Shown here: one piece after another, positions 1,870-54,931 of the stretch
Layout: each line of letters begins with the position of its first letter
Position numbering within the stretch: position 1 is the first letter of the stretch
Source: Mytilus edulis
Taxonomy: Eukaryota
Direction of reading: 5' to 3'
Assembly (NCBI RefSeq): GCF_963676685.1
Contig: NC_092353.1
Location: forward strand, 31,558,001 to 31,622,000
DNA length: 64,000 nt
Notes under the pieces: model-generated
What the model saw: the letters and a program-made list of their open reading frames with translations, nothing else
Database searches by the model: none
What the model was told of the DNA's origin: nothing
Program-made: the position numbers and the translations under genes

Positions 1870-2078
1870 TTACATTGGTGCTTCACATAAAAGTTTATAA
1901 CGAGATTCACACACACTGCTATTCCATTTCCGGTTACGTAGATCAAGGCATCGTTTTTCATGTTTCACAGCAAATGACCTCCCACGGTTGTCATCAAGCT
2001 TTATAGAAGCATCGTTTATCCAGCGCCAATGATGGAAGTTAACATTGAAATGTGCACCCAGCCAAACACGTTCAGACC
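1870..2078 (-). CDS. Second terminal C-type lectin exon (candidate alternative last exon 8b of gene B)
   Basis: Acceptor tttttgaag| in phase 1 reads (W)SERVWLGAHFNVNFHHWRWINDASIKLDDNRGRSFAVKHEKRCLDLRNRKWNSSVCESRYKLLCEAPM*. It has the WLG, WxW, C, W..C and LCE CTLD motifs, with AATAAA just after the stop (1863-1858). Confidence 0.75.
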
Positions 2079-3208: not shown

Positions 3209-3939
3209 TTAAGATGGTCTTTGCAGAATTAGAAAGTTGAAATGAGTTGTACTTTTTTTATCCGCACAGAAAAGAGTTCGAAATGCCAAAATATATATTA
3301 AAAAGTCTTATCTTTATCCAAATGCACTAGCATTTTTGTGGTTTCATCTAAAAAATGACCATGCATTTTAAATAATCTTATTCATAAATTGGTTGGTCTC
3401 GACTGAGCATTTGCATTTGGTTTTCTTGAATTATTCATTTACTTTTTTTTGTCAGACTGATGATTGTGATTAGAACACAAGTTGGTTGGGTGTTCAATGT
3501 GTCGATGTAGACTTGTCAGTTAGTATATTGAATGTCCAGCAATACCGATTTCCAAGTCTAACTTAACTTGAGACTTGTACTAAATGCATAATATGTTAAA
3601 GTTGCATAGTTTATAGACAATTTTGATACACAATAATAAACCAATTGGAACATCAACGTTTGCTAGACAATACATTTATTAAACTTAATGAATATGTTGT
3701 AGAGCAAAACGTCAATTGTGTTGATTTTAGTTCCGGTGTATATGTTTTTTTGTTTTTTTGTTTTTTTTTTAAATCAATACGATTCTTCACAAAATAAGAT
3801 TTTTCATGACCAACAATTAAAAAAATGTATACTAGTAGCTAAGTTTCCAATGTTTGTAAAACACGCTCTTTTCAATGAAACAATGGAGTCTATTCTATAT
3901 TCAAATACAAAAAAATCCAGTTGTTGATGATTTTGTTCC

Positions 3940-5153: not shown

Positions 5154-5371
5154 TCAATGACTCCATGTTTCACATAGATGTTTGTACTCAGTACTACAAG
5201 GTCTACTTCTCCATTTGTCGTCGATAAGAGCCATACATTGATGGTAATTGGGTTCCGAATGCGAATGCCAATGAGAGTCATCTCTATGTATATGCCCGTG
5301 GCTGTCGGTAATCCATTGCCATTCATGTTGACCCTGGATGTAAGACCCACCAAGCCAAACAGCATCATGGT
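5154..5371 (-). CDS. Gene B exon 8a (CTLD C-terminal half, EPN)
   Basis: ttttgaag|AC CAT GAT GCT GTT TGG CTT GGT ... GAA CCC AAT ... CTA TGT GAA ... TGA, followed by AATAAA. This frame is not in the ORF track. Confidence 0.88.
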
Positions 5372-8300
5372 CTTCAAAATATAATTCATGTATTTATAAA
5401 TTAATGTATCTTAATCATTCAATGTATTCGTATTTCGTTTACATAATTACTCAAGTTCTGATTTTAACTTCAAAAGGTTTTCTATTCAAATAAAAAAAAT
5501 TAGGGATATCACCGTGATGCGGACTAATCTTTAGTTTCATCAACTTTCATGGAATATAACAGTAAATTTTAACAGATTTTTAGAGAAACAAGTTTTAGTC
5601 CTCCCTGATTTAAATATTTAAACAAATATTTAGTATCTGTAGAAAATGTACTTAAAACGGAATAGGACATTCTAAATTTTACGGTGATGTTGTCAGTGTC
5701 CTTAATTGAATTGATTCATATTTTACATGTCGGGGCAAATTATAGCTGGATTTGAACTTTGGTGGTAGATAGTTATCTCATTGACAATCATATCTCATTC
5801 CTTTTTTTCCATATATTTATAACGTATGCTACTTCTTCTGGTTTGGGTTGACATACACTGATTTGCCGTGACTACCCTGTTTTCAGCCATCCAATTACAA
5901 AAAAAAATATTGTTGGAAAAATGTATCTTATTACACAGAACGTTTACTGATACTGAATTCTGTAATCCGGCCACATATTGATTGTTATAATCTATAAGAA
6001 GCTGTTGGTGTTTCACTTTCGTGGAATTATATTTTATTGAGTTAAGAAAATTGTTTAACGGGTACTAAAGGAACATGTTTCTTATTGTATTATTATCCTT
6101 TGTATTCATACATCGTCCATCAGCGGCTATTTCAGGAAACAATTTTATAGATATCAATATCAAGTTAAGAGTAATTATCGCAACGTACAATAGACTACTG
6201 CTCAAAATAAAAATAAAAATCTTACATTTGTAGATGTTCCGAAGAAATTTAACAAGGGCTACATGTTCTGCGTCGGAACTAAAGACAGCCATATGCATAT
6301 GGTGTTCTTTACACGGATCCTGAAATAAAAATATAACGTTATTTTGTTCTGTATAGATTTTAGATACACATTGTAAAGGAATGTACAAAATGAAGTATTT
6401 ATCAAGAAATTAACTGAAGTAAACTTTTGTTTCTTGTATTTCGTTGGTTTTTCCTGTTTCAATTGTTTAAAACACTAGTCAATTTGAAACCATTTATAGA
6501 TTGATTTTTCGGTGTGTGCCAAGACTCCTTGTCAAAGGTCGTACTCTGAGTTATGATTGTCAACTTTTTATACATGTGACTTGGATAGAGAGTTGTCTCA
6601 ATGGCACTTATATCACATCTTCTTATTTATATTAATTATATTTAGTATTTATTTATCTATTTATTTATTACATAGCTTTGATATAGCGCCTATCTAATAA
6701 ACATACTACTCTAAGCGTTTAACATATAAAATTGAAGGAAAATATATATCACAATGCATACAATAATAGCAATTATATATATATATGAACATAAGAATAA
6801 AACAGAAATTAAATAGAACAAGAATGTGTCCCCAGTACACGGATGCCCCACTCGCACTATCATTTTCTATGTTCAGTGGACCGTGAAATTGGGGGTAAGA
6901 ACTCTAATTTGGCATTAAAATTAGACAAACCATAACATAAGGAACATGTATACTGAGTTTCAGGTTGATTGGACTTCAACTTCATCAAAAAATACCTCGA
7001 CCAAAAACTTTAACCTGAAGCGGGACAGACGAATGAACGAACAGACGGACGGACGGACGAACGAACGGACGAACGGACGCACAGACCAGATAACATAATG
7101 CCCCTCTAATATCTTAGGTGGGGCATAATAATGATGTAAATTAAGAGCATTGAAAGGGGAAATATATATCACAATAAATACCATAAAAACATATTAAATA
7201 TAACAGTCAATCAAAAATTAAATAAAATAATATATTCTTAGGTTTTGTCTGTAATACCGATTTTTTTAAAATTCAATGCTTCAATTGGTTTAATTTTGAT
7301 TGTATGTTGTTCTTGCTTTGTCCTATAAATCAAGCGTTGAGTACTAAATCGCCAAATTCAATTTACCTGTTCAAAGCCAGGAATTTTGTAAGTGGTGTGA
7401 CGATGCCGTCTTCTCATATTTTGTTGTATTATTAAAAAGGAATGCATATATCAAGGGAACACTAAGAAAACCATACAAAGAATAAGATAACACCATGGTT
7501 ATAAAAGATGAATGGATAAACAATAGTCCCCAAAAAACCAAACAGTTCAGTTCAAAGAAAACAGGGTGTGAACCCATTTGAGACAATCAGAGGGTAGTTG
7601 ACTGCTAGCCAAAATCAGACTAAGAGTCGCAATAAAAGAAGACAGAAACAGATTTTGTTATGAAAGAGAAAAGATTCAAAATATCCGTGTCATCTGTAAC
7701 TTTTAATAATGAAAAAAATGAAAACAAAGAAGTAAATAGAAACACTTTAATAATTTCGAGCGTCCTAAACGATTTTCTTGATTGACTTTCTTAATCACGG
7801 TCGTTCAAACCTGAACATTTGAAAACGTGGAATGTATGAACCCATAACATTAATAGGGGCTAAACGACCTGAAGGGGCTTAAAGAAATAGCGGCCCCGGT
7901 AAACTTTGCCTAAGAGATTTTGAATCTTGTTACTAAGTTATTTAATAATTTTCAACAAATATATTCAAAATAACATATATTATAAACCATGCATGATAGC
8001 ACTGTCAACTGAGCTTACGATACACTTCGAGACAAGAAGTGCACTAGCAATACAAGTGGTATCGACACAATACTAGTATATAAAACATTTTCTACACATT
8101 TCATGCGTCTGAATCTCTTTTCTGGATTTACCTTCAGCAGGCTTTAAGCACTCACACACAAATATTTAACTTCCCACGATATATAAATACTTGGCATGTG
8201 TTTATTATTTGTAATTGGTTTTGAACCAATTTTTTTTTTGCTTAGTGTCAAACTGGTGAGTCAAACCATTTTTTAATTATTTCTGAAGTTTGTTCTCATG

Positions 8301-11300
8301 TTTTACTGTGTCATCATTATCTGCGGTTAGATGATGCCTGAGCCAGCACAAAAAGGTTTAACTCCACATAATTATATATGTGCCTCTCTCAAGTAAGAAG
8401 TCTGTATTTCTTGGTTCGGGTCTGATATATCTGGTTTTCGTTTAATTTCACGTAAATCAGGACGTCGATTGTTCGTTGAAAATGTGTCTCATTTTATCAT
8501 ATGGGGCCTTTGATAGTTGACCTTGCTTAAGGGAATGTTATTTATATTATATATTTGTTGATAATTACACTAGTTTCCATAGTTTCCTTCATAGGTTGCA
8601 CTTTGCAAATACAGCTGTTTCTCAAACCACGCATCTTTTGGGGAGATATACAATATTCAATGATAATTTGAATTGTTGACATACTGGTTCCCATATATGA
8701 TCTCTTTGTTTCATCTCATAGAAACATAACTTGAGACAGTTACCAGTATAAAAGCATACTATTGCGGTGAGTAAGTAGGCAAAAAGTAAAGGAAGGGGTG
8801 GTTCACAATTTTAGTGTAAGTTTAAACACTTACAAGTTCTGGGCATTTAATGTTGAAAAAATGCCGTATGTTGTGACATTTGAATAGAATAGTAGTGCAT
8901 ATCAACTTTCTATTCTAGGATATAATTGGTTCCTTTTTCCTTTTTCCTTTTTCGATATTCAAATTTTGAAAAATATTACAAGTCCAAACTAAAAATTTGT
9001 TTTCCTTCAAAAATTTTTTTCCTCAGAATTTTTTTTTCCTCAAATTTTTTTTCCTCAAATTTTTTTTTTTCCTCAAATTTTTTTTTCCTCAAAATTTTTT
9101 TTCCTCAAATTTTTTTTTCTCAAATTTTTTTTCCTCAAAATTTTTTTTCCTCAAATTCTTTTTTCCTCAAAAAGTTTTTCAATTTTTTTTTTTCGTTTCC
9201 TTATTCGGTTTCTTTTTCCTTATTCGGTTTTCATTTCCTTATACAGTTTCTATTTCCTTATTCGATTTCCATTTCCTTATTCGATTTTCATTTCCTTATT
9301 CAGTTTCTTTTTCCTTTTTCAATGTTTATTTCCTTTTTCAGTTTCTATTTCCTTATTCGGTTTCTATTTCCTAATTGGATTTTCATTTCCTTATTCGATT
9401 TCCATTTCCTTATTCGATTTCCATTTCCTTATTCGGTTTCTATTTCCTTATTCGGTTTCTATTTCCTTATTCAGTTTCCATTTCCTTATTGGATTTTCAT
9501 TTCCTTATTGGATTTTCATTTCCTTATTGGATTTTCATTTCCTTATTCGGTTTCTTTTTCCTTATTCGGTTTCTATTTCCTTATTCAGTTTCCATTTCCT
9601 TATTGGATTTTCATTTCCTTATTGGACTTTCATTTCCTTATTCGATTTCCTTTTTCGATATTCAAATTTTGAAAAAAATTACAAGTCCAAACTGAATTTT
9701 TTTTTTCCTTCAAAATTTTTTTCCTCAAATTTTTTTTTCCTCAAAATTTTTTTCCTCAAAATTTTTTTTTCCTCAAAATTTTTTTTTTTCAAAATTTTTG
9801 TTTTCCTCAAATTTTTTTTTCCTCAAAAAGTTTTTCAAATTTTTTTTTTTCGTTTCCTTATTCGGTTTCTCTTTTCTTATTCGATTTTCATTTCCTTATA
9901 CAGTTTCTATTTCCTTATTCGATTTCCATTTCCTTATTCGATTTTCATTTCCTTATTCGGTTTCTTTTTCCTTTTTCAATGTTCATTTCCTTTTTCGGTT
10001 TCTATTTCCTTATTCGGTTTCTATTTCCTTATTTCCTTATTCGGTTTCTATTTCCTTATTTCCTTATTCGGTTTCTATTTCCTTATTGGATTTTCATTTC
10101 CTTATTCGATTTCCATTTCCTTATTCAATTTCCATTTCCTTATTCGGTTTCTTTTTCCTTTTTCAATGTTCATTTCCTTTTTTGGTTTCTATTTCCTTAT
10201 TGGGTTTCTGTTTTCTTATTGGGTTTCTATTTCCTAATTGGGTTTCTATTTCCTTATTGGATTTTCGTTTCCTTATTCGATTTCCTTTTCCTTATTCCAT
10301 TTCCATTTCCTAATTCGGTTTCTTTTTCCTTTTTCAATATTCATTTCCTTTTTCGGTTTCTATTTCCTTATTCAGTTTCTTTTTCCTGATTCAGTTTCCA
10401 TTTCCTTATTGGATTTTCATTTCCTTATTGGATTTTCATTTCCTTATTCGGTTTCTTTTTCCTTATTCGGTTTCTATTTCCTTATTCAGTTTTCATTTCC
10501 TTATTGGATTTTCATTTCCTTATTGGACTTTCATTTCCTTATTCGATTTCCTTTTTCGATATTCAAATTTTGAAAAATATTACAAGTCCAAACTGAATTT
10601 TTTTTTTCCTTCAAAATTTTTTTCCTCAATTTTTTTTTTTCTCAAATTTTTTTTTTCATTAAAAATTTGTTTCCTCAAAATTTTTTTTTTCCTCAAATTT
10701 TTTTTTCCTCAAAAAGTTTTTCAAATTTTTTTCTTCGTTTCCTTATTCGGTTTCTCTTTCCTTATTCGATTTTCATTTCCTTATACAGTTTCTATTTCCT
10801 TATTCGATTTCCATTTCCTTATTCGATTTCCATTTCCTAATTCGGTTTCTTTTTCCTTTTTCAATATTCATTTCCTTTTTCGGTTTCTATTTCCTTATTC
10901 GGTTTCTATTTCCTTATTCAGTTTCTATTTCCTTATTGGATTTTCATTTCCTTATTGGATTTTCATTTCCTTATTCGGTTTCTTTTTCTTATTCGGTTTC
11001 TATTTCCTTATTCAGTTTCCATTTCCTTATTGGATTTTCATTTCCTTATTGGATTTTCATTTCCTTATTCGGTTTCCATTTCCTTTTTCGATATTCAAAT
11101 TTTGAAAAATATTACAAGTCCAAACTGAATTTTTTTTTTCCTTCAAAATTTTTTTCCTCAAAAAGTTTTTCAAATTTTTTTTTTCGTTTCCTTATTCGGT
11201 TTCTTTTTCCATATTCGATTTTCATTTCCTTATTCGGTGTCTATTTCCTTATTCGATTTCTATTTCCTGATTCGATTTTCATTTCCTTATTCGGTTTCTT

Positions 11301-14300
11301 TTTCCTTTTTCAATATTCATTTCTTTTTTCGGTTTCTATTTCCTTATTCGGTTTCTATTTCCTTATTGGATTTTCATTTGCTTATTCGATTTCCATTTCC
11401 TTATTCGATTTCTGTTTCCTTATTCGGTTTCTATTTCCATATTCGGTTTCTATTTCCTTAGGTAGCACTCCACAGTTAAAAAATAAAATTAAAAATGAGC
11501 CACAAAATGTTTTATCATCTCCTATTCCTGGATTTCTAATACATTAACGTAACTGTTTGTGTTGTACATGTGCATATGTATGTAATCAGTATCTTCCATA
11601 GATTTGATTTTCAAAAGTGAAAAGGGTGAAAATTAATTCCTTTTATGTGTATCCATGGCAACATTCTGCATTTATTTCCCATAAAATATTGCAAAAAGGG
11701 GGGTGAACATGTCACATTTCACCCAAAAATTTGGATCAAACTAGAATTTCAATGCCTTTGAGTGATACCTTTTCAGAAACTGTTTCCCTAAATCTTCCTA
11801 ATGATCAAATAAAAAATGGGTGTCTTTCGTCTCATTTTTTCGTAAAATCTAATCACAAAGTTCGTGCGATAAAAAGTTGGAAAAAAAACATTGCAATAAT
11901 TGCCGGACCAGTGTATGGTAGGGACATGCAAATACGGACTGTCATACAGAAACCAGCCTATATTAGATACATTACATAACCTTGATGTTCATATAAACCC
12001 AATACAAAGATTATTTTAATACTCAGCTATCCAAAAATGAATTTTATTGCACACTAGCTCTCATATTTGAAAAATTCACAGGGGCCAAAATGCGAAACTA
12101 CACATCTAACTGTGGAGTGCTACCTTATTCGGTTTCTATTTCCTTATTCGGTTTCTTTTTCCTTATTAGGTTTCTGTTTCCTTATTTGATTTCTTTTTCC
12201 TTATTAAATTTTCATTTCCTTATTCGGTTACTATTTCCTTATATTTACAACTATCAAACATCAACACACACCAAACTGGATGTAATTGAAAGATATCTAG
12301 AGGTCAATATACAGGCTCGAACAAAAGACAAAAAAGGAAAAATATAGCGAGCTTTTGGGGATGAAGATGTAGTAAAGACCAAATGTCAGTTTTAGTCGGA
12401 TATACTTTAATGTTAGTCTTACATGTTGTTCTGGAACTCATTCCTCATTTATTCGTCAAGTGATCATCATTTTATATTGTTAACGTTTCATTGCGTACAT
12501 CGCTTAATGTGCGCCAGTTTTAGAGTTTTATACAGGACAGTGTAGGAATCCATGTTACTTTCCCCTTTCTCTGAATAACGAAAACTGCTCAGCGGGTCAT
12601 GTGCACAACTACAAGGAACATTCAGCGGACAGTCACACGTTCTTCTTCTTCTTCCGGTAAGCGGCCACCGTCAACTGGTTGTCCAAAGGAACAATTCATG
12701 GCTAACCACAGCGTGAGTTACATTTAAAACATTACAAATTTTGTATTTACATCAGCCATGAACTGTTTTAATATCTTTTCTTATGTTATAAAGAAATTAT
12801 GAACATTTTACCGTTCAAACTGTTCGTATCTGAGATGTTACAACTTAATTCCAGACAGAACCCGACGTGTGCAAGAATATTTATCTATTTATTATTATAA
12901 AGAACTTTAACGGCTTTATATATCTACGAACTGTTTATCCGTATATTTTATGGACTTAAATTATCATTGAACACATTGTAAAATTGTATTTATATTTTAT
13001 TTTCAGTTTTTCATCTTTTGGATTGGTAGTAAAATAAAAGTCAGCTCCTGATTGTTTTATCGTTACATTAACCCAGTGATCTGGGTTACACTCACTGGTC
13101 CGGCCAGTACACATGTATAGATGTGTATATATATCATTGATTCAGTGGCGATGGCAAATAGACACTGATAAGTCTTAAATAAAATTTTATAGTTTTGAAT
13201 GTTTCTTCATCAGTTGACTAAAAATAAGTGGAGGTATGTTCTCATTGCCGACAAGAGAGGCGCTCTACCTATATTAATTTGTGCATAAAGCGATTGAAAG
13301 TTGTTAGATACTGAATGCTTTTACCACAAATGCGCCTAAGTTTTAATCTGTGTATATATACTTAAAATACGATGATAAAATTTATGTCTTGTTCAGGATT
13401 TCTGTCAGATCCAACCATGTAGAAGTCATGTTTGTGAGCTATGGTTTTAGTCGATGATGTTCATGAAGGACCTGTAGTACAAAGTATATCACTGGATTGA
13501 GCTCTCTGTCTAAGTGTATCATTAAAGTGCTTTGCTTTGAGCTGAGTTCATTGCGGTGCAATTCATTTTTTGTGAAATAAAGATTTGACAGACAACTCTC
13601 ATGTACAAGGATTTGTCAAAGTAGTATTCATTTTATGTACAATGTATGTAATCACTGTGCTTAAACGGCCGTGGGTAACTTATGTTACTCACAGCCCAAG
13701 ATGTTGAGATGATAGTTGATACGAAATCTACTTTTTGCAACGTTTTTCATGATCGATGTAAATATTGAGAAGACTTTTGAATCAAGAAATCACTTGCCAT
13801 CACTACATATGCGTTAATTTTGACTTCATTTTAGCGCAAGGCCAACTTTTAAAAAAAGCATAAGATGTCCGTAACTTATAAATCAAAAATAATCAGACTG
13901 TCCGTAACTTTATTTTCGGATGTGGGTAACTTTGTTTTCAAAACTGTAAGATTAACAATTTCAACACTTACAGGACAATAAACACTATCAAACCCTTTAA
14001 TTATTACATAGATTTATACAATAACGATATGCTTGAAAAAGCAAACAAGAGTGTCACGGATTTTCCGTTAAATTAAAAAAAAAAATATTCCTGGGATAAA
14101 ACGGGATTTTACGGTACGGCGAAATTGATCTAACATTCTTCTAGCTTTAAAGATTGTTCACTGATGAGTCCTTGGTCGGTGTAGCCGCGGAAACATTGAT
14201 ATCCTTTCCTTTAAATCATGATATTCTGAATTGTTAGTCTCTTCACTATATCTAGTGTGATGTGTTGTTGATTTCGAGAGAAAAAAATGCCAATATCTAG

Positions 14301-17300
14301 GAATAGATGGAAGGCTTTATATTGTTAAACAGGATTTAGTTTATTATAGCAATAAAAGTAGATTTAAAAGCTTCTAAAAGTTTCATTGACCTCAGGGATT
14401 CAATAAGATCGGGTATCAAATCATACATATCTTCTTTAAAGGTTTGGACTGATATATCTATGTATTTCTGCTAAGGATTGTCCTCCGAAATTGTTCTCCT
14501 AATGTCATTTGCATATGTTCACTATTAATTGATTGATCGATTTTTGGTTGCTTAACGTCCAGTGGCAAATATTTCATGCACATCCAGACGGTAACAAGTT
14601 CACAAGACCTACCAAATAATAGAAGCCATCTGGGATGAAGATCGGGGAAATATGGACTGCCACTGGAAATTAATGGTATATCGGATAGGGACAGAAATTT
14701 TGCCTAGCTACAGGCCACCTACGGACCCATCAAAGAAGTGTTGCAAGGGTTCTTAACGTGCCCTCCTTACACGAGGCATCGGATTTAACGTCCCAAATCT
14801 GACCGGACGTGACTGCGTAGTTGATACATCCCGCACAGCCAAACGGACGCCTCACTTCGGCAAGCGTTTTACTGCCGGTCGGGAGAAGACCAAGTGACCA
14901 TATTTCTATTCCCCAGTCACCCTTTGGGGTGTTCACTATTAATGTAATTTCTACAGTTGGAAATGGTGAGATTTATAACCTGCATGTCATGATTTATCAT
15001 CTAAAACTTAAGCAGTAAACAATCTATAAAGTCAGTAGAATGTATAATTATACATTAATTTTGCCGTACAATTTTCTACATAAGAAAATGCCTGTACCTA
15101 GTCAGGAAAATGGCAGTTGTTATCCATTCGGTTAAGTTTTGGATTTTTCCATTTGATAAGGGACTTTCCTTTTTGAATTTTCTTCAGAGTTTAGTATTTT
15201 TGTAATTTTAGTTTTTAATGCCTGTACCAAGGCAGGAATATGGCCGTTGTTTTCTATTCGTTTGGTGTGTTAAATTGAGCTTTTGGCTTTGCACTTCCAT
15301 AAAGGACTTTCCGTTTGAATATTCCTAGGAGTTCGGTATTTTTGTTATTTATCATTTCTTTTTTTTATAATTACATCTACGAATAAAGATTCTTTGAAAA
15401 TTACTGACATCATGCTAAAGTTACGGACAGCCCTATTGGTATAAGGGAAAAAGTTACGGACGAGCTGTTTTGAAGTTACGGACATCATAAGTGTTTTGGA
15501 AAATCGTGCTGTAATCAATTATTTTGTAGTAATAAACCACGTTTTACATTGCAGAGTTTTCTTAAAAGATTTATATAACTTTTTAAGTACTGAACATTTC
15601 TTTTGTATTCATTGTATTATTATCATATAGGAGCAAACTTCCTAACCGAAGCCAGGCGGCTCCATTTTGGGCTGTAGGTAACTTAAGTTACCCACGGCCG
15701 TTTAAGCACAGTGATTACATACATTGTACATAGAATGAATACTACTTTGACAAATCCTTGTACATGAGAGTTGTCTGTCAAATCTTTATTTCACAAAAAA
15801 TGAATTGCACCGCAATGAACTCAGCTCAAAGCAAAGCACTTTAATGATACACTTAGACAGAGAGCTCAATCCAGTGATATACTTTGTACTACAGATCCTT
15901 CATGAACATCATCGACTAAAACCATATCTCACTAACATGACTTACTTCATGGTTGGATCTGACAGAAAACCTGAAAAAGACATGAATTTTATCATCGTAT
16001 TTTAAGTATATATACACAGATTAAAACTTAGGCGCATTTGTGGTAAAAGCATTCAGTATCTAACAACTTTCAATCGCTTTATGCACAAATTAATATAGGT
16101 AGAGTGCCTCTCTTGTCGGCAATAAGAACATACCTCCACTTATTTTTAGTCAACTGATGAAGAAACATTCAAAACTATAAAATTTTATTTAAGACTTATC
16201 AGTGTCTATTTGCCATCGCCACTGAATCAATGATATATATACACATCTATACATGTGTACTGGCCGGACCAGTGAGTGTAACCCAGATGACTGGGTTAAT
16301 GTAAGGATATAACAATCAGGAGCTGACTTTTATTTTACTACCAATCCAAAAGATGAAAAACTGAAAATACAAATATAAATACAATTTTACAATGTGTTCA
16401 ATGATAATTTAAGTCCATAAAATATACGGATAAACAGTTCGTAGATATATAAAGCCGTTAAAGTTCTTTATAATAATAAACAGATAAATATTCTTGCACA
16501 CGTCGGGTTCTGTCTGGAATTAAGTTGTCTCATCGCAGATACGAACAGTTTGAACGGTAAAATGTTCATAATTTCTTTATAACATAAGAAAAGATATTAA
16601 AACAGTTCATGGCTGATGTAAATACAAAATTTGTAATGTTTTAAATGTAACTCACGCTGTGGTTAGCCATGAATTGTTCCTTTGGGCAACGTGTCCGCTG
16701 AATGTTCCTTGTAGTTGTGCACATGACACGCTGAGCAGTTTTCGTTATTCAGAGAAAGGGGAAAGTATCATGGATTCCTACATTGTCCTGTATAAAACTC
16801 CTAAAACTGGCGCACATTAAGCGATGTACGCAATGGAACGTTAACAATATAAAATGATGATCACTTGACGAATAAATGAGGAGTGAGTTCCAGAACAACA
16901 TGTAAGACTAACATTAAAGTATATCCGACTAAAACTGACGTTCGGTCTTTACTACATCTTCATCCCCAAAAACTCGCTATATTTTTCCTTTTTTGTCTTT
17001 TGTTCGAGCCTGTATATTGACCTCTAGATATCTTTCAATTACATCCAGTTTGGTGTGTGCTGATGTTTGATAGTTGAAAATATAAGGAAATAGTAACCGA
17101 ATAAGGAAATGAAAATTTAATAAGGAAAAAGAAATCAAATAAGAGAACAGAAACCGAATAAGGAAAAAGAAACCGAATAAGGAAATAGAAACCGAATAAG
17201 GAAATAGAAACCGAATAAGGAAATAGAAACCGAATAAGGAAACAGAAATCGAAAAAGGAAATGAATATCGAAAAAGGAAAAAAGAAACCAAATAAGGAAA

Positions 17301-20300
17301 TGGAAATCAAATAAGGAAATGGAAATCGAATAAGGAAATGAAAATCCAATAAGGAAATAGAAACCGAATAAGGAAATAGAAACCGAAAAAGGAAATAAAC
17401 ATTGAAAAAGGAAAAAGAAACCGAATAAGGAAATGAAAATCAAATAAGGAAATGGAAATCGAATAAGGAAATAGGAACTGTATAAGGAAATGAAATCGAA
17501 TGAGGAAAAATAAACCGAATAAGGAAACGAAAAAAAAAATTGAAAAACTTTTTGAGGAAAAAAAATATTTTGAGGAAAAAAAATTTTGAGGAAAAAAAAT
17601 TTGAGGAAAAAAATTTTGAAGGAAAAAAAAAATTCAGTTTGGACTTGTAATATTTTTCAAAATTTGAATATCGAAAAAGGAAATGGAAACCGAATAAGGA
17701 AATGAAAATCCAATAAGGAAATGAAAATCCAATAAGGAAATGGAAAATGAATAAGGAAATAGAAACCGAATAAGGAAAAAGAAACCGAATAAGGAAATGA
17801 AAATCCAATAAGGAAATGAAAATCCAATTAGGAAATGGAAACTGAATAAGGAAATAGAAACCGAATAAGGAAAAAGTAACCGAATAAGGAAATGAAAATC
17901 CAATAAGGAAATGAAAATCCAATAAGGAAATGGAAACTGAATAAGGAAATAGAAACCGAATAAGGAAAAAGTAACCGAATAAGGAAATGAAAATCCAATA
18001 AGAAAATGAAAATCTAATAAGGAAATGGAAACTGAATAAGGAAATCGAAACCGAATAAGGAAATAGAAACCGAAAAAGGGAATGAAACCGAATAAGGAAA
18101 TGAAAATCGAATAAGGAAATGGCAATCGAATCAGGAAATAAACTGTATAAGTACATGAAAATCGAATAAGGAAAAAGAAACCGAATAAGGAAATGAAAAT
18201 CAAATAAGGAAATGGAAATCGAATAAGGAAATAGGAACTGTATAAGGAAATGAAATCGAATGAGGAAAAAATAAACCGAATAAGGAAACGAAAAAAAAAA
18301 AAATTGAAAAACTTTTTGAGGAAAAAAAATTTGAGGAAAAAAAAATTTTGAGGAAAAAAAATTTTGAGGAAAAAAAAATTTGAGGAAAAAAATTTTGAAG
18401 GAAAAAAAAAATTCAGTTTGGACTTGTAATATTTTTCAAAATTTGAATATCGAAAAAGGAAATGGAAACCGAATAAGGAAATGAAAATCCAATAAGGAAA
18501 TGAAAATCAATAAGGAAATGGAAACTGAATAGGGAAATAGAAACCAAATAAGGAAATAGAAACCGAAAAAGGAAATGAATATTGAAAAAGGAAAAAGAAA
18601 CCGAATAAGAAATGGAAATCGAATAAGGAAATGGAAATCGAATCAGGAAACGAAAATCCAATAAGGAAATAGAAACCCAATAAGGAAATAGAAACCCAAT
18701 AAGGAAATAGAAACCGAAAAAGGAAATGAACATTGAAAAAGGAAAAAGAAACCGAATAAGGAAATGGAAATTAAATAAGGAAATGGAAATCGAATAAGGA
18801 AATGAAAATCCAATAAGGAAATAGAAACCGAATAAGGAAATAGAAACCCAAAAAGGAAAAAGAAACCAAATAAGGAAATGAAAATCGAATAAGGAAATGG
18901 AAATCGAATAAGGAAATAGAAACTGTATAAGGAAATGAAAATCGAATAAGGAAAAAGAAACCGAATAAGGAAACGAAAAAAAAATTTGAAAAACTTTTTG
19001 AGGAAAAAATATTTTTAGGAAAAAAAATTTGTGAAAAAAAAATTTTTAGGAAAAAAAAAATTTGAGGAAAAAAAATTTTGAGGAGAAAAAAAAATTTGAG
19101 GAAAAAAAATTTGAGGAAAGAAAAATTTTGAGGAAAAAAAATTTGAAGGAAAAAAAAATTTCAGTTTGGACTTGTAATATTTTTCAAAATTTGAATATCG
19201 AAAAAGGAAATGGAAACCGAATAAGGAAAGGAAAATCCAATAAGGAAATGAAAATCCAATAAGGAAATGGAAACTGAATAAGGAAATAGAAACCGAATAA
19301 GGAAAATAGAAACCGAAAAAGGAAATGAATATTGAAAAAGGAAAAAGAAACTGAATTAGGAAATGGAAATCGAATAAGAATGGAATGGAAATCGAATAAG
19401 GAAATGAAAATCCAATAAGGAAATAGAAACGCAATAAGGAAATAGAAACCGAAAAAGGAAATGAACATTGAAAAAGGAAAAAGAAACCGAATAAGGAAAT
19501 GGAAATTGAATAAGGAAATGGAAATCGAATAAGGAAAAGAACATCCAATCAGGAAATAGAAACCGAAAAAGGAAATGAACATTGAAAAAGGAAAAAGAAA
19601 CCGAATAAGGAAATGAAAATCGAATAAGGAAATGGAAATCGAATAAGGAAATAGAAACTGTATAGGGAAATGAAAATCGAATAAGGAAAATGAAACCGAA
19701 TAAGGAAAAAGAAACCGAATAAGGAAAAAGAAACCGAATAAGGAAACGAAAAAAAGAATTTGAAAAAACTTTTTGAGGAAAAAAAAATTTGAGGAAAAAA
19801 TATTTTTAGGAAAAAAAATTTGAGAAAAAAAAATTTTGAGGAAAAAAAATTTTTGAGGGAAAAAAAATTTTGAGGAAAAAAAAAATTTGAGGAAAAAAAA
19901 TTTTGAGGAAAAAAAAATTCTGAGGAAAAAAAATTTTGAAGGAAAAATTTTTTTTAGTTAGGACTTGTAATATTTTTTAAAATTTGAATATCGAAAAAGG
20001 AAAAAGGAAAAAGGAACCAACTTGTGTCTGGTTAATATTTCACGAAACTTCATAGTAAAAGTGTCACAGTTTAAGCCCCAAAGGGAGTTCCTCTGGGAAA
20101 TTGCATTGTCTGTAATAACAGAAATGCAATCTATGGCTGTATGACAAAAAGAGACTGTAAAGAAAAATAAATGCGGTTAATGACAACATTAGAACGTCAG
20201 TTGACCAGATTTTTTTTAAATCTATCAACAGGAAATATTGCATTGCCAAATTTGTACAATTAGACAATTGAACTAGCAACCGTACATTTCAGATTCAATC

Positions 20301-23300
20301 TAATTACTTATAAATTCCTGCTGAAAGTGAGCGTACAATAACCAGAAAGCAGCTTTATTGCACCTATTTGTTTCAAAAAAATTACAGAAAGTATTACATG
20401 GCACAGACAACATACAAATACTGACACTGAACGGAAAAATATATTAATAACTTACTGCATGGTGACCATGTCTCGTTTTATACCACGATGTTTCATGTGT
20501 AGTCAAATAATAACATTTGTGATTCCATAGATAATACCCATGCCCTCTGCAATCATGTTCAACTGAAATATCGAATGACACCCCTTATATATTAATACTA
20601 TACATTTAGAAAGATCTAAAAAGCTACACACAATTTAAGTGATTATACTAATAAAATAATAAAAAAATTGTAAAAATTGTGAAACAATTCGAACGAGAAA
20701 ACTTTAGCCTAAATTAAAGCATTATTACAAAAAAATAAATATGACAATATCAACGACAAACACTGAACTAATAGCTCCTGAATTGGGACAGGCTCATAAA
20801 GAATGTTGAGGGGTTAAACATGTGTGTGATGCACCAAACCCTAACCTGGGATAGTGGTGTTTCAATACAAATAAGAAAGAAAGAGGTAAAAACAACTGGT
20901 AATTTCAATTAACAGTAATTTTTTCTTAGGAGTTTGAACCATATTTTCATAATAATTTTTTAATCTATCAGCGAATTTTAGAAGAAAATATATTATGTTA
21001 GTACCGAACCAATGACCACTTAGCTGATTAAACATCAAGGGATTAACAGTTTACTAGCAGTTGTATCGACCAAGTGCTAGTGATTGAAAAATAACTTTGT
21101 AAATTTCGTGCCTCTTAATGCTTTCCTGGATTAACTTTCTTTAAGGTGAGGGGCGAAAATACCAAAGGAACAGGACAGCCAAAATCATAGATTAAAAATA
21201 AACTGACAACACTATGGCTAAAAAGGTAAAAGACAAACAGACAAGTAATAATACACAAAACACAACATAGAAAACTAAAGACTAAGTAACACGCCCAAAC
21301 CTTAAAAACATTTAAAAGCCATGAATGATCATAAGAGCCATAAAGTAAATATAGAATCCGTCAAATGTTAACTATGTCTGATTAGTGATAGTGTACGAAC
21401 CTTAGTTTTCATCATTTTCTTAATCAAAGCAGAATAAAGAAATAATATTAAAAAATGCATGTCAGTACCAAAGCACTGACTACTGAACTGTTGATTATTG
21501 ATTATTAAATCAAAAAGTTGATTCACAAAAATACTGAACTCCGAGGAAAATTCAAAACGGAAAGTCCCTTATCAAATGGCAAGATCAAAGGATAAAACAC
21601 ATCAAAGGAATGGATAACGACTGTCATATTCCTGACTTGGTACAGGCATTTTCAAATGTAGAAAATGATGGATTGAACCTGGTGTTATATCGCTAAACCT
21701 CTCACTTGTATGGCCGTCGCAATCACATTCCATTATATTTACAATGATGCGTGAACAAAACAGACAGATTAGGTAAAATTGTCATCTCATACTTACATTG
21801 TGGCGGAGCAGCAGTAGCACGTGTTGTTGTTTGTTGTGACGTCAGTGTTGTTTGAGTTGTACGTCTTGCTGTAGGTGATACAGTTGTTGTTGACTGTATC
21901 GTAGAACTTGAAATGTCATATGTGTTGCACAGATCGGTAGAACAGCAAAAATGTCTTAAATTTCTCTTCTTCGTACCATGACAGTACTGGAATACAAAAA
22001 AATGATATGGTAGTATTTCATAACTTAATAATTACTTTAGATGTATGCTTCATTATAATACTTTATTCTGATTGGCCAACTGCACATCTCGCGTTATTCC
22101 TTAATTAATTGCATTTCACAATAAAATATTTCATTCATAATGACACGAGATCCCACAATAAAGTGCACAGGTGAATAAAATAAAAACTTGATAAAAATCA
22201 TGTTTTCATGATCCTAGCTAAGAATGTAATTATAAGTATTGAATGCTTCTTTTTGTAATTTCATAGAGTTGAAAAAGCGTTGACCATGCGCACATTTTTA
22301 GAATGAAGCCCGCGCTTCATATAAAATTTACTTCGGTCAACGCTTTTACACCCCAATGAAGTTACGAAAAGAAGCGTTCAATTCTTAAAATGGTTTTACA
22401 ATATTTAACCTTTTATTAATCGTCACTGATGATTCTTTTGGAGACAAAACGCGCGTCTCGCACAAATGCCAAAGTTCAATCTAAGAATCTAATACTATGA
22501 TGAGTCGATTTAGAAATTAAATTTTGTATAAACAAAAGACACCGCGAGATAGTCTTAACAATGGATTCCAGTGCTTAAGGAAACACTAGGAAAAACTTTG
22601 TTTAACCTTTCCATTTTTCTTATTTTTTCATATATAAGATTCAAATTATTATCAAAAATGGGAATGACGATGATTGTCCTTTCATTTGTCCCGTAAAACA
22701 GACAGAACAAGGCTTTTGGGTAATATGTACAAAGTACAAAAATGTTCCTCTGCACCAGACGCGCGTTTCGTCTACCAAAGACTCATCAGAGACGTTCGAA
22801 TAAAACAAAATTAAAAAAAAATACGAAGTTGAAGTGCATTGAGGACCAAACTTCCTAAATATTTTACAGCTAAATGATGAATTACCTGAGGTAAAAAAGC
22901 CTTACTATTTCAAAAATGTATAGTTTTGTAAACTCTTAATTTATAATTATGATCATCTTAATGATAATTCATGTCTTAAAAGAAGTGCTGACTACTTGGC
23001 TGTTGATACCTTCGGGGATTGACAACAGTAGCTTCGACTAAGTGGTTGTAAATAAACTCATCATTGATATCAGAATTTAAATTTTGTAGTTGCGCCAAAC
23101 AAGTGAAAAAGGCCAATAAATGAACGAAGTTAAAGAGCATTGAGGACCAAACGTTCCTCAAATACTGATGTTAAGTATGGAAAGCCAAGAACAAATTCTA
23201 TGCGTAGCTGTCTTGTTTGTCCTGAATATTCACGAAACACTTATTCGATGAACGCTAGTCAATTCTTTATTCAGACTGAGACGCCACATATGATTAACAT

Positions 23301-26300
23301 ATGATGACAGACTAAATACAATTAATGCCAGAATAGACAAAAAACGAATAACAAAAGAACAGTAGCTAAAGATAACATAACATCTAACCAAATGAGATTA
23401 TATAGTTTCTTGATAAATAAAGATAGATTATGCAATAAATGGCAGTGACATAATCAAAATAACAAACAATCAATCAAAGTATGAAATAATAAATACCTGA
23501 ATTCCACCACAGCCTAACTTGTAGGAAAAACGGAAATCGTCATTCACATTTTCTGCTTGTATACATACCTGTGAAAATAGATCAATGCAGAGTAATTCAA
23601 TACTGTTGAGGTTTAATGTTTGATTTGTTAAAAACAAAGCAATTACAATTTTATTTTATATCTAATTTAAACACCCAAAAAATAAACTAGAGTAAGTGAG
23701 TAATTAAGGAAATTAGTGAGTTATTTTTTATTGAAATAAAGACCAGACATTGAACTATCATCAAATACAACATTTACATATGAACAGATACACATGTTTG
23801 CAAAATTGAATGATTGCGAAAGGTTAAAATCCCTTACATTACATGCACATCTTAAATGTTGGGTTTTTTTTCAAACATAAGAGCAATTATATTGAAATTT
23901 GTCTTCCTTTTAAATAATCTTACTAGAAATCTGATGTTTATTAAGCAAAAAAAAAATTAACAAAAAATATTTAATTAAATATGCATTAACATCATGTTAA
24001 ATTTTGAAACAAAAATTCCTATTTTTGGGTGATGGAGTTGACCATTTATTGGCAATAGAAAAATACTTATATTTGGATAAAGCATGTTGTTGGAAACTGA
24101 TGACAGTTTTGTGCAATGATGCTGGATAAATCTTATTGATTCGAAAATGTGCAGTACAAAGTTGTGCATCAGTTTATTGTTTATATAGGAACCTCAATAA
24201 TAATTGACCTATAAGAGTAACTTATTACCAAAAAGGTATATGATAAAAAGATCGAAAGAAATATTTTTAAGAAAAATCTTTTTTTTCAAACACTGAGGAT
24301 ATTTATTAATTTTGTTTTATATAGAAAGCATCAAAGGGTTCTGCCTTGCATTTTCTGAAAAAAATGTAAAATACCATAAAAACCGAACACCTAGGTAAAT
24401 TCAAAACAGAAAGTCATTTGGTAAAATCAAAAGCTCAAACAATTCAAACGAATTGAAACAACTGTCTTACACCAGATTGGATACAGGCATTGTCTAAAGA
24501 AGAAAATGGTGGTTCAAACCTTGTTTTATAAATATAAAAACCTCTCACTTATATGACACTCGCATAGAATTAAATTATATTGACAACAGTGTCTGAGCAA
24601 AACAACCAATAATTATAGGTAAAAGATATCAAACATTTAGGCAAATCAGTCAACATTAAATGTCAACAAAGAAAAAACAAAATGTCATATGACGAATGAC
24701 CGGAATGAAAATATAGCAATACAATAAAAAAAAAATGCAATATTTCATTTAAAAAAAACATAGCAGACGTCGTACGATTGTACAAAATCTTGACCATGCC
24801 ACGTGTCATACTACTTTTCAACAATTAAAATTATAAAGCATGAAATGAGGGTTATGATTTTTCTATTCAGAGAGGCAATCATCATGCAAACAGATTTTGA
24901 GCTCTTTAGTTTTTAGAAATAAAAAAAAAATCCAATATTCTGGAAACGATCAATCATTGGCGTACTGATAATGATACTCTTAACTATAAAGAGTTTGAAA
25001 GTTTTTAAAGAAAAGAAAAAAAACAACATTGTATGCCATTATATATAAGGGCATATACTATCAGATAACGGTTGTGAATGGATTATTAGCAATATATAGA
25101 ATTCGCTGACAGAAGAAAGTCTTTCTGAGAAACTACTTAATTATCTCAGACGAATAAAAGTCTAAGATGGTTAAAGGGGCAATAGCTGTCAAATTCATGT
25201 TCATCGATTTAAATAAATTCTCATATTTTATTTATAACAATGTAAAACATATATCCAAACTGTCAAAAGTCTAAAATAAATAATAAACAGGACACGAGCA
25301 TGAACATACGTATCTTCTTTTCGTGTGTATTTTAGTCCAGACGACACCTAATTAATTTATCCAGTTGACCTGTAAAGTCATGCAATCACCATAAAAGACC
25401 ATGTAAACATACATATAGATATAAATAGATTAAGCAAACTCGTGCTGTTGGATTATTCTAGGTCTATTTAATTTCATATTATAGATGAAAATAAATGGTT
25501 ATCATCGTTTTTACCTTTATAAGAGTGATTTTTTTGTGGATCGAAACATTCAATCAAATGATTTACCTTTGATCCACTTTGAATGTTGACATTCTTTTTT
25601 TTTAAAATAACTTTACACATACAATTCACGTGTTATCCATCTCAAGCTAAGGGGTTAAATTGAATTGTACATGAATACGCATTCAACGAGGTCGAATTAT
25701 TCACTTGCAATAAAGTATTTTCCTACCTGACCTGGCTGGGAACATACTTGTGAAACATTACATAGAGACGGCTTGGCAACATCATCACAGGTGTAGCATT
25801 TTAAACCTACGGTCAAATAAAAAACTCACTCAAAGTCATAGTTTCGTATATTTATTTAATAGATTTTCAGTAAAATTTGCTAACATCACAATACAAAAAA
25901 TATTTCTTGAATATGATATATTATCCGAAATATTATTAGAATTGATGCAAGTTTGATTAGAATGTTCGTGCAATATGTGAAAAACGTGAGTAACATTTTT
26001 TTTAAATTATCATTGTGAACAAATTGTCATAAGGTTTTCTTAAAAATAAGGGTCTGTGTGAGATTTACAAAAATATAGACAAAATGGGCCAGATTAAGAA
26101 AATAGAGGATAAAAAAAAATAAGAATAATAGAGTGCTAGTATGTAAAGAATACAAGGACAATGAGCCAACCTATGAATCAAAAGTGAGAAAAATGACCTA
26201 ACAAAGTACAGAAATTAGAGACCATTCATCCAGACTCTCATTTATATTAGGGTCACTGGTTTCGGTTTTCATCTTTTATTATATTTATTACAAGGTGCCA

Positions 26301-32734: not shown

Positions 32735-35700
32735 CTTGATGATAAAATAAAATATCATATTTATATCATTAATGCACTATCCTAAAACGTCTTATTAATA
32801 GATGTTCTTTATTATGGTCAATAACAAACTTATTATGGTATGGGTCTTCCTCGTCGTTGAAGGGTGTAAACTGGCATATGACTGCTTACACCAACTACAT
32901 TTATGCTAAGGGAGACAGTTGTACCTTTGGTTATCATACCACATCTACTTTTCCTTTATTTATTGCATGTACGGCCATTCTGGAGCAAGAAGTATGTTTC
33001 TGTTACCATATAATTTTCAACATAATAAAATGCCTGTGTAGAGACAGTAATTTAAGAGTTGTTATCCGTTCGTTTGATGTGATGGAGCTTTTGAACTTGT
33101 AATTTGATGACGGGCTTCCCGTTTTGAATTTTCTTCGGAGTTTGTCTTTTTGGCTATTTCACTTTCTAATTGCAAGAAGAGTTCTGAATATGTCGTGTTA
33201 AGGAAGGAATTGCTAGAACTTCTTTAGAATCTTCTCTTAAATTTTTTTAACAATTAATCTGGAATTTGACCGATTTGGAAATAAAATTTAGTGTAGAAAT
33301 TTTGCCTATTGGTTAAGCTATGGGGTGATTTTTCTTTTAATCGATTAGTTTTAATTTTAAAGGTGCATACCTGTATCTCTTTTCTTTCAAATCTGCATGT
33401 GTAGGTACTTTAATGTTTTGACTTGATAGTTGTGTCATTGTTTTTTTTTCTCTTAGTAGGGAATATAATTATAAAACTACTAATAACATTAACGGTACCA
33501 ATTTTCCTGCACCAATACAATTCACTCAGGTCGATATTATAAATACAAACTCAAATCTCACAATACGAACTAATTAAAAGTTACATGTTTACATGGCAGT
33601 TTGCTTCTATGTACGTTACAATGGCGTTTGTTTTTGGTGCATTCAGTATTTCTGTTGTTCCGTTGTTGTCCTCATATAGTTGATGTGTTACCCTTTGTTT
33701 TAGTTTGTCACCCGGATTTGTTTTCCCTCAATCGATTTATGACTTTATACAGCGGTATACTACTCTTGCCTTTATTTACCCTGTGATGGGATTCTGATAT
33801 CACTCCAGATTGTGTTGAGTTCTTATTTTCAAAGTTTAAGTCGATCTACATACATATATTTCCAACATAAAGCAAGAAAAGAAACATGCATCAGCTCGGA
33901 AAATTTAGAATCAATCCATGTCAACTTATTGTTCGTCTGACATTTATTCATATATACAAGCCATTGTTTGAATTAAATTATGTAATATTTTTGATGTCTC
34001 CAATAAATGCCTACATTTAAAAAGTAAATACTCAACTTATTCCTACAAACAGGGTACAATTTATTACAGACAAAATATAGTCAATATTTTTAAGCATTTA
34101 AAATAAACTTTGAAATTAGAGAAAAAAAATATAAAACAATACAAAAGACGACCTAATACTTTCAAAAATAGTGTTGTGGTGAAATATATAAACATATAAA
34201 AATAACTGAAAATATCTAAATATATTGAAATGCTAACACGTGAGACCCCCAGTAGCTGTGGGAGATCTGTTATATTTATCTAATTTTTCAAATAGTATTT
34301 AACAAATAAAGTCTTGGCACGGTATGAAAATATATACATATTTAGGTTGATTTTCTAGGCACTTTATATATATATGTATATATTTTATATATATATATAC
34401 TCACATACCATCTCAATATAAAGAGTTGCTGCACTTACATTTATAAATAGCTCTAACAAAATGGACGACTGCATCATGTTCTTGATCAGTTTCCAGAGTT
34501 ATCATTTTCATATGCAGTTGAATACAAGGATCCTGAAATCAAACAAAATCATTTACAGAAATATTGCAAAGTTTTTGATTTAACGCATTTTGCAAGTTTT
34601 TAATCTAGCATTATCCTACAATTACCAATTAAATATATTGAGAAAGTTTGAATTAACAGAAACTTTCATGAGCAATTAAAGATATGCGATACGGTCATTA
34701 ATATGTGCTTTAGTACGAAAACACAAACAAGGTCTAAGAAAGTCTTCAAATATGATTTCTGATTCAATAAAGTTTTAGAAAAGTATCCTATCTTTATTAG
34801 TACAGTAACTACTTTGAATATAATTTATTTCCAGTTAAAACGATATACCGGGCATTCATCTATTGGAAGTTTTTATGGGCATTGTCGTCATGACTTAATT
34901 GGCCGTTATGGAGTTACTATGTCTCATATGACCACGGATACATTACACTTATAAAAGTCGCCATCTTCTTCTTTAACGACAGTATGATATCCCCGATTTC
35001 GACGAATCCCTGGAATTAAACTAATTATGAGCAACAGGTGTATTTTATAGAGCACATATCTTAACCACTGTTTTTTTTTTTAAATAAGTTGCTCAATCCT
35101 TAGTTGTCTATTAAAAATTATGAGGGGTACTGTCTATCTGATCGTTATCTTGTTTCAGTCAATGCGTTGATTTTATAATTGTTGTAAAGCCCTTGTCATC
35201 TTTTCTCCTTTTTCATTTCATACTTTGTAAGCATGGATATTTTCACAAGGTCTGTGATTCATTCAACCTTTGTTTGTCCCTGCCTACGATATCCGATTGA
35301 CGGTCTTCCTGCTTCAATATCTTACAATACCGAAACATCTAGTTTACTATCTTTATAACAAAAACTACATTTCTTGTATTTGTTCGCATTTAAGTATGAT
35401 ATACTTACAACGTCATGTCCATGGCTGTCAACTTTCCATTGGCTTGTATAGGACAAAATACAGTACCCATGACCATTCCATCGGTAGTAATGTTTACCAT
35501 TGCAGTCATAATGATGATTGACTAAAAATGAAATTTAAATAAAAGTAAGCTTAACTAGTGGAAAAAAAAGAGATATTTGAAAATGTATTAAATGTCCTTC
35601 ATTAACACACACACAACGGAAAATCTTTCGATATGTTAATTTACTTCGTAAAATACCTGTAACAAGTCAGGAATTTGGCAGTTATTTATTCCGTTAACTT

Positions 35701-54900: not shown

Positions 54901-54931
54901 AAACAACACGAAGATCTACTTTAATTTAGAT

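Follow-up and report, generated by a model that had tools for sequence, protein, structure and literature searches.

An intronic foldback palindrome in a mussel lectin gene belongs to a dispersed family with a likely 67-kb parent

The FB and FB-NOF elements of Drosophila have modular arms in which short tandem units are arranged in higher-order blocks, a variable centre, and a NOF protein between the arms; FB-NOF has reportedly been termed non-autonomous, by Badal et al. in 2013. Here we describe a palindromic element, called the window copy, in a 64-kb stretch of Mytilus edulis DNA from NC_092353.1 (hereafter the window; all window positions are those of the whole stretch). It lies in intron 6 of a C-type lectin gene, gene B. 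With a probability of about 78%, we consider it to be a non-autonomous foldback copy of a family that makes 9-bp target duplications, inserted into an already existing intron and shortened by 18 bp on its left, which is likely a deletion descendant of a 67-kb parent and was likely moved by the predicted NOF-like, Mutator-related transposase of that parent.

In the portions of the published accounts that we draw on here and below, target duplications of the Mutator class measure 8-11 bp (PMC6446971), and Rehavkus is represented by six insect and leech elements of 4.9-18.5 kb, with one open reading frame (PMC6446971), a 9-bp duplication and variable tandem repeats in long inverted ends (PMC6446971; for Tribolium, bioRxiv 10.1101/2024.12.02.626372). 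The arms of Galileo in Drosophila mojavensis grow when repair from the opposite arm takes up internal sequence (PMC3573991), and Tm1 has a single coding copy per isolate (PMC3169594). The main text of a bivalve survey (PMC10294476), in the portion available, has no occurrence of Rehavkus or foldback, and the literature that we searched, with Repbase and subscription papers outside its scope, described neither this family nor Rehavkus in mussels.

A dispersed family and its copy in the window

A reading of the window made from the letters alone (the sequence-only reading) had described a palindrome with satellite outer arms and near-identical inner arms. Self-BLAST of the window recovered both pairs, the outer arms at 8926-11459 and 20020-17255 with 78.8% identity and the inner arms at 12123-13703 and 17201-15663 with 94.7% identity. 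The outer arms are composed of 19-bp units (about 120 and 142 copies) and blocks of 16-bp units, and each contains four higher-order units of 532-901 bp.

A search for further genomic copies, which the sequence-only reading had proposed as a check, was made in a 1.37-Gb mussel assembly (G000) and yielded dozens of independent copies with 9-bp duplications of their own. The exact 20-mer terminus occurred 54 times in the forward and 56 times in the reverse orientation (control, 0 and 0). When up to two mismatches were allowed, 107 and 109 ends were found (control, 0 and 1), and the added ends included a subfamily with one base changed. The target duplication was perfect in 49 of the 62 copies examined, had one mismatch in four and two in one; among shuffled flank pairs, 212 of 119,999 agreed with at most one mismatch. 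Two of the 49 perfect duplications, at C2:100.87 and C2:100.96 Mb (L036-L037 and L222-L223), belong to one insertion that occurs twice in opposite orientation with identical flanks, that is, to a local inverted duplication.

The copies ranged from 596 to 67,304 bp, with 0-7 higher-order units per arm (46 copies). We sorted 68 stretches into type A, the type of the window copy (16), type B with another non-coding core of 4.9 kb (36), type C (3) and others (13), some of the last being chance 14-mer matches. No stop-to-stop frame of at least 150 amino acids that belonged to the family was found in 45 copies and the window copy; the frames present there were retroelement-like inserts or unassigned. 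Long inverted arms, a variable tandem outer domain, dispersed copies, fixed termini and variable centres bear out the earlier placement in the foldback class. Judged by its sequence, the window copy is one non-autonomous member of a family of about 100 elements.

The family also settled where the window copy ends. Comparison with other copies gave the family terminus ACCAGACACAAGTTGGTTCC, and the right end was therefore set at 20032, followed by TAATATTTC; the ends read earlier, 8926 and 20020, miss the true right end and a clipped left terminus. The left junction is short by 18 bp, the greater part of the left duplication together with the element's initial 13-14 bases, so that only the right copy of the duplication and four bases of the left one survive. 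Because the family makes 9-bp duplications, neither a 4-bp AATT/AACT duplication with a mismatch nor an insertion into TT^AA without duplication, the two options first entertained, is correct. The insertion lies inside a high-copy host repeat (708 candidates). At 11 of 11 other loci this repeat is unbroken across the equivalent site, with the left flank running into the right flank, and loose contig ends from three DNA runs join the flanks in the same way. The contiguity at the 11 loci indicates that no host DNA was lost at the insertion, and a deletion of host flank at the left end was rejected, since just 18 bp of duplication and terminus are gone. With one end clipped, the window copy is probably immobile.

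The contents of the window copy recur elsewhere as well. Its 664-bp miniature inverted-repeat transposable element (MITE), presumably PIF/Harbinger-like, sits at the identical place in other subfamily A copies with 96-99% identity. The solo long terminal repeat (LTR) has a two-LTR relative (L213), in which a DUF1759 match fell below the cut-off; we take both to be BEL/Pao-like. The central element with CACTGTG..CACAGTG ends also occurs as free copies elsewhere in the genome, and eight two-ended free copies were flanked by an exact 5-bp duplication (5/8), a 6-bp duplication (2/8) or one with a mismatch (1/8). The hallmarks of Transib elements are CAC termini and a 5-bp duplication; this passenger has both, and we assume it to be Transib-like. 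Foldback elements had been described as having unique inner domains; the inner domain here is not unique: type C and other type A copies carry the inner-arm sequence. On these comparisons, the MITE, the 1.4-kb inner arms, each with a solo LTR, and the Transib-like centre are inherited family cargo.

The same comparisons bear on whether the palindrome is an artefact of assembly or of fold-back reads. The MITE and the arm indels had been held to argue against this as arm-specific marks. They are shared with family copies elsewhere and so do not mark the locus; the conclusion drawn from them stands on the family copies and their 9-bp duplications. We found nothing in favour of an artefact. Fixed left-arm and right-arm variants are common to other loci, the same layout occurs at independent sites with their own duplications, and the right end and target of the window copy match those of the family. 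For the window copy an artefact is thus close to inconceivable, and for the family it is already refuted.

Several further observations concern the subfamilies. Subfamily B (for example L071-L072, L051-L052 and L053-L054) carries a nested stack of palindromic MITEs, 0.3-4 kb long, which grows at one fixed site in one of the satellite arms; parts of this stack have been copied into the opposite arm at C6:85.42 and C2:10.91. No host donor of the B core was seen among the 40 scored of 1,831 candidates, and copies of 43 kb and 34 kb were rejected as parents, being B cores enlarged by other inserts. One copy (L024, C1:81.72 Mb) contains two copies of a 71% relative of the window MITE in its satellite, which offers a TTA each 19 bp. 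Relatives of the C core at 82% identity, with no satellite arms within 20 kb, lie at C9:35.55 and C1:122.76 Mb (L318-L325) and could either be an older lineage or have supplied the core of type C.

The 67-kb copy and the making of the inner arms

One copy of type C, here called the giant, is 67.3 kb long (G000:C4:40419892-40487195), has the family terminus and satellite at both ends, and carries a minus-strand gene with overlapping frames of 756 and 451 amino acids. The residues D498, D573, C620, H623 and E797 (D, D, CxxH, E) are invariant across fourteen relatives; CxxH is a motif of Mutator/MULE transposases. A scallop relative combines the transposase with a USP-like part and an Ulp1 protease (Peptidase_C48, E 5e-22), and the giant holds, in the same order and spread over 35 kb, eight pieces that match the C-terminal half of this relative. 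The borders of the gene pieces had AG and GT ends in six of seven cases inspected, the seventh showing AG only within the stretch examined.

The second part of the giant's product is 95% identical to the M. coruscus protein P0001. A structure model of P0001 (mean predicted local distance difference test, pLDDT, 62.6, the core mostly above 80) matched best ISCth4 of the IS256 family (Foldseek E 4.9e-04; Z 11.9, root-mean-square deviation 5.5, 243 aligned), with Z scores of 10.5 for the P element and 9.6 for Hermes. In the ESM Atlas, its nearest structure was the cluster '120.7 kDa protein in NOF-FB transposable element' (template-modelling score, TM, 0.73 over 485 residues), whose members carry Peptidase_C48 (45%) and PHD (34%), and a feature search placed MULE clusters at the top rank (0.94). 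Neither the giant's frames nor P0001 matched a Pfam MULE/Mutator domain or a THAP domain. A PHD finger was present in the relatives P0009, P0012 and P0015 and was not found in P0001 or in the scanned frames, from which small exons were only partly recovered.

Two findings bear on whether the gene is part of the element. In two C copies, satellite is joined to sequence of the giant, each time at a different breakpoint, one arm being cut just past a unit head. The armed copy at C5:75.36, which has an 8-of-9 duplication, shares the giant's interior 4-7 kb upstream of the gene, collinear and at 91-94% identity; other genomic matches to that interior reach at most 80% over the same length, bar one C2 locus (67.61 Mb). 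These breakpoints and this interior support the gene being part of the element, suggesting that the giant is likely the parent and helper of the family.

Other candidate helpers gave no comparable signal. Among the best 50 of 114 PF20700 and 142 PF10551 loci, which represent canonical Mutator/MULE helpers, only chance matches to the terminus or satellite were seen, and five of these loci inspected to 10 kb had no such arms. The arms were likewise absent within 40-50 kb of five other NOF-like loci and two decayed ones. Other NOF-like genes (L298-L313; C6:78.83, C1:47.75, C2338 and C6:11.27 Mb) are mostly made up of one or two long frames that include USP and Ulp1 parts, and each adjoins a long satellite array with a unit of 345, 186, 347 or 179 bp. 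A cluster of decayed transposase pieces with 39-68% identity lies at G000:C11:26-38 Mb, with no arms where checked. Tandem copies of a 670-amino-acid Mutator-like frame with a period of 4.4 kb occur on C72, C520, C740, C1273, C1542, C2000, C477 and others, many of them unplaced contigs, and at C12:58.93-58.95 Mb, and the same set of loci holds a second tandem transposase frame of 666 amino acids with a period of 4.8 kb.

How were the inner arms made? Type C has a single copy of the inner-arm sequence, 94-96% identical to both window arms, with no LTR and with an empty Transib site (GTAAT|AGGGAG). In type A, the Transib-like element lies between ATGTAAT and its mirror ATTACAT, and the inversion stops exactly at its termini. 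Between the inner arms of the window copy there are 34 substitutions and 48 gap columns in 1,581. Scored at 14 diagnostic sites, 25 arms included 10 mosaics, six of these at two or more sites. At C7:75.33, the MITE is present in both arms (99.7%) and one arm is left-type outside and right-type inside; at C4:86.45, one of nine informative copies, the centre is flipped; and the type A copy at C12:8.03 (L095) has lost its spacer and forms a near-continuous palindrome of 9.1 kb with a perfect 9-bp duplication. The window arms are purely left and purely right at the diagnostic sites, that is, unconverted. They differ from each other by 2.0% substitutions, and each differs by 0.9-2.1% from the same arm in other copies. 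The flank alleles of other animals diverge by 0.6-1.2% (4/673, 12/1450, 15/1419 and 8/663), so that the insertion would be about as young as allelic variation.

Taken together, these data suggest the following history. Satellite arms with a fixed terminus enclose dozens of dispersed copies, and their tandem units may serve as transposase-binding sites whose number shifts by slippage or unequal exchange. The junctions point to a loss of interior from the giant, which would have given the 11-14-kb subfamily C. The solo LTR and the Transib-like element would then have entered the C core, and gap repair involving two nested pairs of repeats, the outer satellite arms and the 51-bp Transib ends, may have overwritten one flank with the inverted other, producing the 1.4-kb inner arms of subfamily A. 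A MITE would have entered a TTA in one arm and travelled along from then on, and the pattern in other copies suggests that exchange between arms continues. The window copy would be a young, probably polymorphic and probably immobile end product, likely a passenger that is spliced out.

The exact coincidence of the inversion with the Transib-like termini could also be explained by a rearrangement driven by Transib, through aberrant transposition using one end per sister chromatid. The central element, however, is complete and has kept both its ends, the inverted duplication has its far boundary in satellite, and arm conversion was seen independently; we therefore regard such a rearrangement as very unlikely. 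Gap repair between nested repeats is likely the simplest account of the inner arms.

A number of points weigh against the descent and mobilization proposed here. Seven of the 62 copies have unmatched flanks (at least four mismatches) and one further copy lacks an end. The giant is single, its left terminus is 3 bp short, and it has no clean 9-bp duplication, the six bases shared by its flanks being expected in 0.3% of random pairs in a post hoc test. In the assembly sequence, the transposase exon has a frame change in an A-run, a point through which P0001 reads; the fold and Atlas results are those of P0001 and not of the G000 protein, and the helper role, likely as it is, is a prediction from sequence and a protein model. 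Just two of the eight collinear pieces are individually significant, and misfitting weak matches score alike. Nothing in the giant matches the major B core (36 of 68 stretches) collinearly. In four of the 10 mosaic arms the difference is confined to a single site, which recurrent mutation or shared ancestry could explain, and the 14 diagnostic sites were defined on 15 of the same 25 arms. Finally, contigs of other animals break inside the host repeat at the window site, and the loose ends stem from its many copies.

Some of these points would fit a different reading, in which the window copy is a foldback and the transposase-protease gene on C4 is either a gene domesticated by the host or a separate element, lying between two unrelated arms, with the real helper absent from the assembly. 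The single close gene copy in G000, its many introns, its high identity to the M. coruscus protein, the degenerate duplication at the giant and the lack of a visible B core there all speak for this. We nevertheless consider it unlikely, given the different points at which the two C copies end and the interior shared with C5:75.36. Furthermore, no second pair of long inverted repeats surrounds the gene, its decayed and diverged relatives show the scatter of a mobile gene, and the protein is of a type that fits elements known to bear such arms.

The lectin gene intron and its RNA

Intron 6 of gene B is 14,136 nt long (minus strand, between the end of exon 6 at 20456 and the start of exon 7 at 6319), and the intron at the same place in the lectin domain of gene A is 876 nt. 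These lengths agree with the sequence-only reading, and the element accounts for about 84% of the difference, in line with the earlier statement that most of it is the mirror structure. Its observation that the frames are intact on either side also held, exons 3-7 being in frame with either exon 8a or exon 8b. The palindrome does not, as had been claimed, split the lectin domain: gene A has the intron too, so that the intron and not the element divides the domain, and about 3.0 kb of the gene B intron remain when the element is removed. Both lectin genes (window 21797-25805; gene A 37314-37493) encode a Cys-rich N-terminal domain, presumably three-finger-like, and a Thr-rich stalk ahead of a C-terminal C-type lectin domain.

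The sequence-only reading had also proposed that the pre-mRNA folds into kilobases of double-stranded RNA (dsRNA), and the pairing capacity of the arms is in keeping with this. The inner arms share 1,322 bases in perfect runs of at least 25, the longest being 164 bp, and their duplex energy is about -670 to -680 kcal/mol per 400-bp block. The RNA of the window copy would form long dsRNA, any downstream consequence being putative.

On these grounds the palindrome might act at the RNA level, shortening the intron, attracting ADAR or Dicer and altering the choice between exons 8a and 8b. ADARs are present in molluscs, according to the relevant portion of PMC6651903. The transcribed strand of the element also holds 11 AATAAA and, in the right arm, a strong cryptic acceptor at 19920 (minus strand; polypyrimidine and CAG), 535 nt past the exon 6 donor. 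The structure, though, is family cargo and alike in copies elsewhere, which means that it was not shaped at gene B. Lying upstream of exon 7, the element is separated by 3.6-6.8 kb from the 8a and 8b acceptors and is outside the intron in which that choice is made, and exon 8b is a candidate only. One RNA contig, from another animal that may or may not carry the element, joins exons 5-6-7 correctly. We thus regard a regulatory role as quite unlikely and the window copy as most likely an ordinary intronic passenger that is spliced out.

Exon 8b was found in none of the annotated proteins, which is weak evidence, and no second exon 7 lies ahead of it. Two raw RNA runs, sampled to 6% and 18%, gave no reads for gene B exons 7 and 8a and are therefore uninformative on editing or on the use of 8a and 8b. 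Between exon 8a and the candidate 8b lies another palindromic element (2481-3215; 735 bp, 86%, TTAA-containing ends), which is nearer to the 8a/8b choice than the large element.

Table 1. Features of the window copy and of the lectin genes, in window positions
Feature	Position	Strand	Remark
Gene B candidate alternative last exon 8b, Lectin_C	1870..2078	-	in frame with exon 7; E 4.3e-06
Gene B exon 8a, Lectin_C	5154..5371	-	E 4e-08
Gene B exon 7	6226..6319	-	
Host repeat interrupted by element	left part ~8600-8922; right part 20033..20134		high-copy
Left target duplication remnant, TAAT	8923..8926		uninterrupted host-repeat copies join left flank straight to right flank
Left outer arm	8927..12242		terminal module (first 13-14 bases gone) and 4 higher-order units: head, 16-bp and 19-bp repeats
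MITE in left satellite, 664 bp	11461..12124		TTA duplication; inherited passenger
Left inner arm, 1.4 kb	12243..13652		
Solo LTR in left inner arm, 685 bp	12427..13111	+	TG..CA ends, CATGT duplication
Central non-autonomous element	13653..15713		CACTGTG..CACAGTG ends; flanks mirrored, not a direct repeat
Common short repeat inside central element	14530..14929		free copies match 13653-14529 and 14930-15714 only, i.e. without the repeat
Right inner arm	15714..17081		inverted copy of left
Solo LTR in right inner arm	16256..16897	-	
Right outer arm	17082..20032		4 higher-order satellite units, intact terminus
Right target duplication copy, TAATATTTC	20033..20041		
Gene B exon 6 (C-type lectin domain start)	20456..20562	-	
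Gene B exons 3-5	25805-25727, 23568-23497, 21986-21797	-	Cys-rich domain and Thr-rich stalk
Gene A intron 6, 876 nt	34533..35408	-	

Elsewhere in the window (49040-49952, 53217-54905, 51619-52427 and 60960-61812), we noted tandem arrays of 62 bp and 24 bp with long open frames, a palindromic element with a 20-bp satellite, and a MITE with 71-bp ends.

Significance and comparison with known systems

The family, with a traceable origin of its palindromes and a giant NOF-like candidate helper, outweighs the window copy in importance. It is a young and countable mollusc foldback system with such a candidate, the helper being missing or disputed for Tetris and FB. It appears to record a stepwise building of long palindromes from unrelated repeats, which are kept alike by exchange between arms. 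With their long inverted arms and lengths of 0.6-67 kb, the roughly 100 elements probably also give rise to structural variation and dsRNA in mussel genomes. An active giant would allow NOF-type proteins to be tested as transposases on defined ends. A broader proposal is more tentative, and we hold it to be possible with some doubt: that mussels carry a 67-kb autonomous foldback with an intron-split NOF-type transposase and two proteases, intact in living animals, which recently spread about 100 non-coding foldbacks. This would be direct evidence that NOF-type proteins are the transposases of foldbacks and that the ends of nested transposons act as second homology blocks from which kilobase palindromes grow in genes.

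In the portions cited, Tm1 of root-knot nematodes (PMC3169594) and Tetris of D. virilis (PMC4079207) resemble the mussel family in composite arms, variable repeat number, duplications of 8-10 bp and mostly non-coding copies. Both are far smaller than the mussel giant; the helper of Tm1 is of the Phantom type with FLYWCH and about 2 kb (PMC3169594), and the account of Tetris identifies none (PMC4079207). Like Pack-TIR and Pack-MULE elements, as described in part of PMC8277862, the mussel copies are numerous and hold non-coding cargo between their arms; unlike theirs, this cargo consists of parent interior and other repeats, and neither a host donor locus nor a captured exon was seen.

The comparison with Galileo, for which we again rely on part of PMC3573991, concerns mechanism. 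Extension of an arm from the opposite arm, chimeric copies and swapping of cores are common to both (PMC3573991). Galileo belongs to the P superfamily, with a 7-bp duplication and arms of at most about 1.25 kb, whereas the mussel extension stops at the termini of a nested, unrelated transposon. Membership of the mussel family in Galileo or the P superfamily was rejected, the duplication being 9 bp and not 7 bp and a THAP match being absent.

The 9-bp duplication lies within the 8-11 bp of Mutator/MULE elements in the wide sense, and a DDE set with CxxH and an IS256-like fold was found for the giant copy only. Terminal minisatellites combined with a 9-bp duplication are a trait of Rehavkus/NOF that the mussel family has, and long inverted ends with variable tandem repeats are likewise shared with Rehavkus as far as the cited descriptions go. 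Relatives of the giant's protein carry PHD fingers, as in Rehavkus, and none was found in P0001. The mussel family differs from it in its mollusc host, its arms of 1-6 kb, its intron-split gene with USP and Ulp1 parts, and a 67-kb element several times larger than any Rehavkus element listed. Compared by published description, Rehavkus appears to be the nearest named group, and the mussel family a possible member of it.

The mussel elements share with Drosophila FB and FB-NOF the modular arms, the variable centre and a NOF-like protein between the arms; unlike that of FB-NOF, the mussel protein keeps the invariant D, D, CxxH and E and has long protease extensions. We conclude that the mussel family works as a Drosophila-type foldback, with the structure and target sites of a Mutator-related class.

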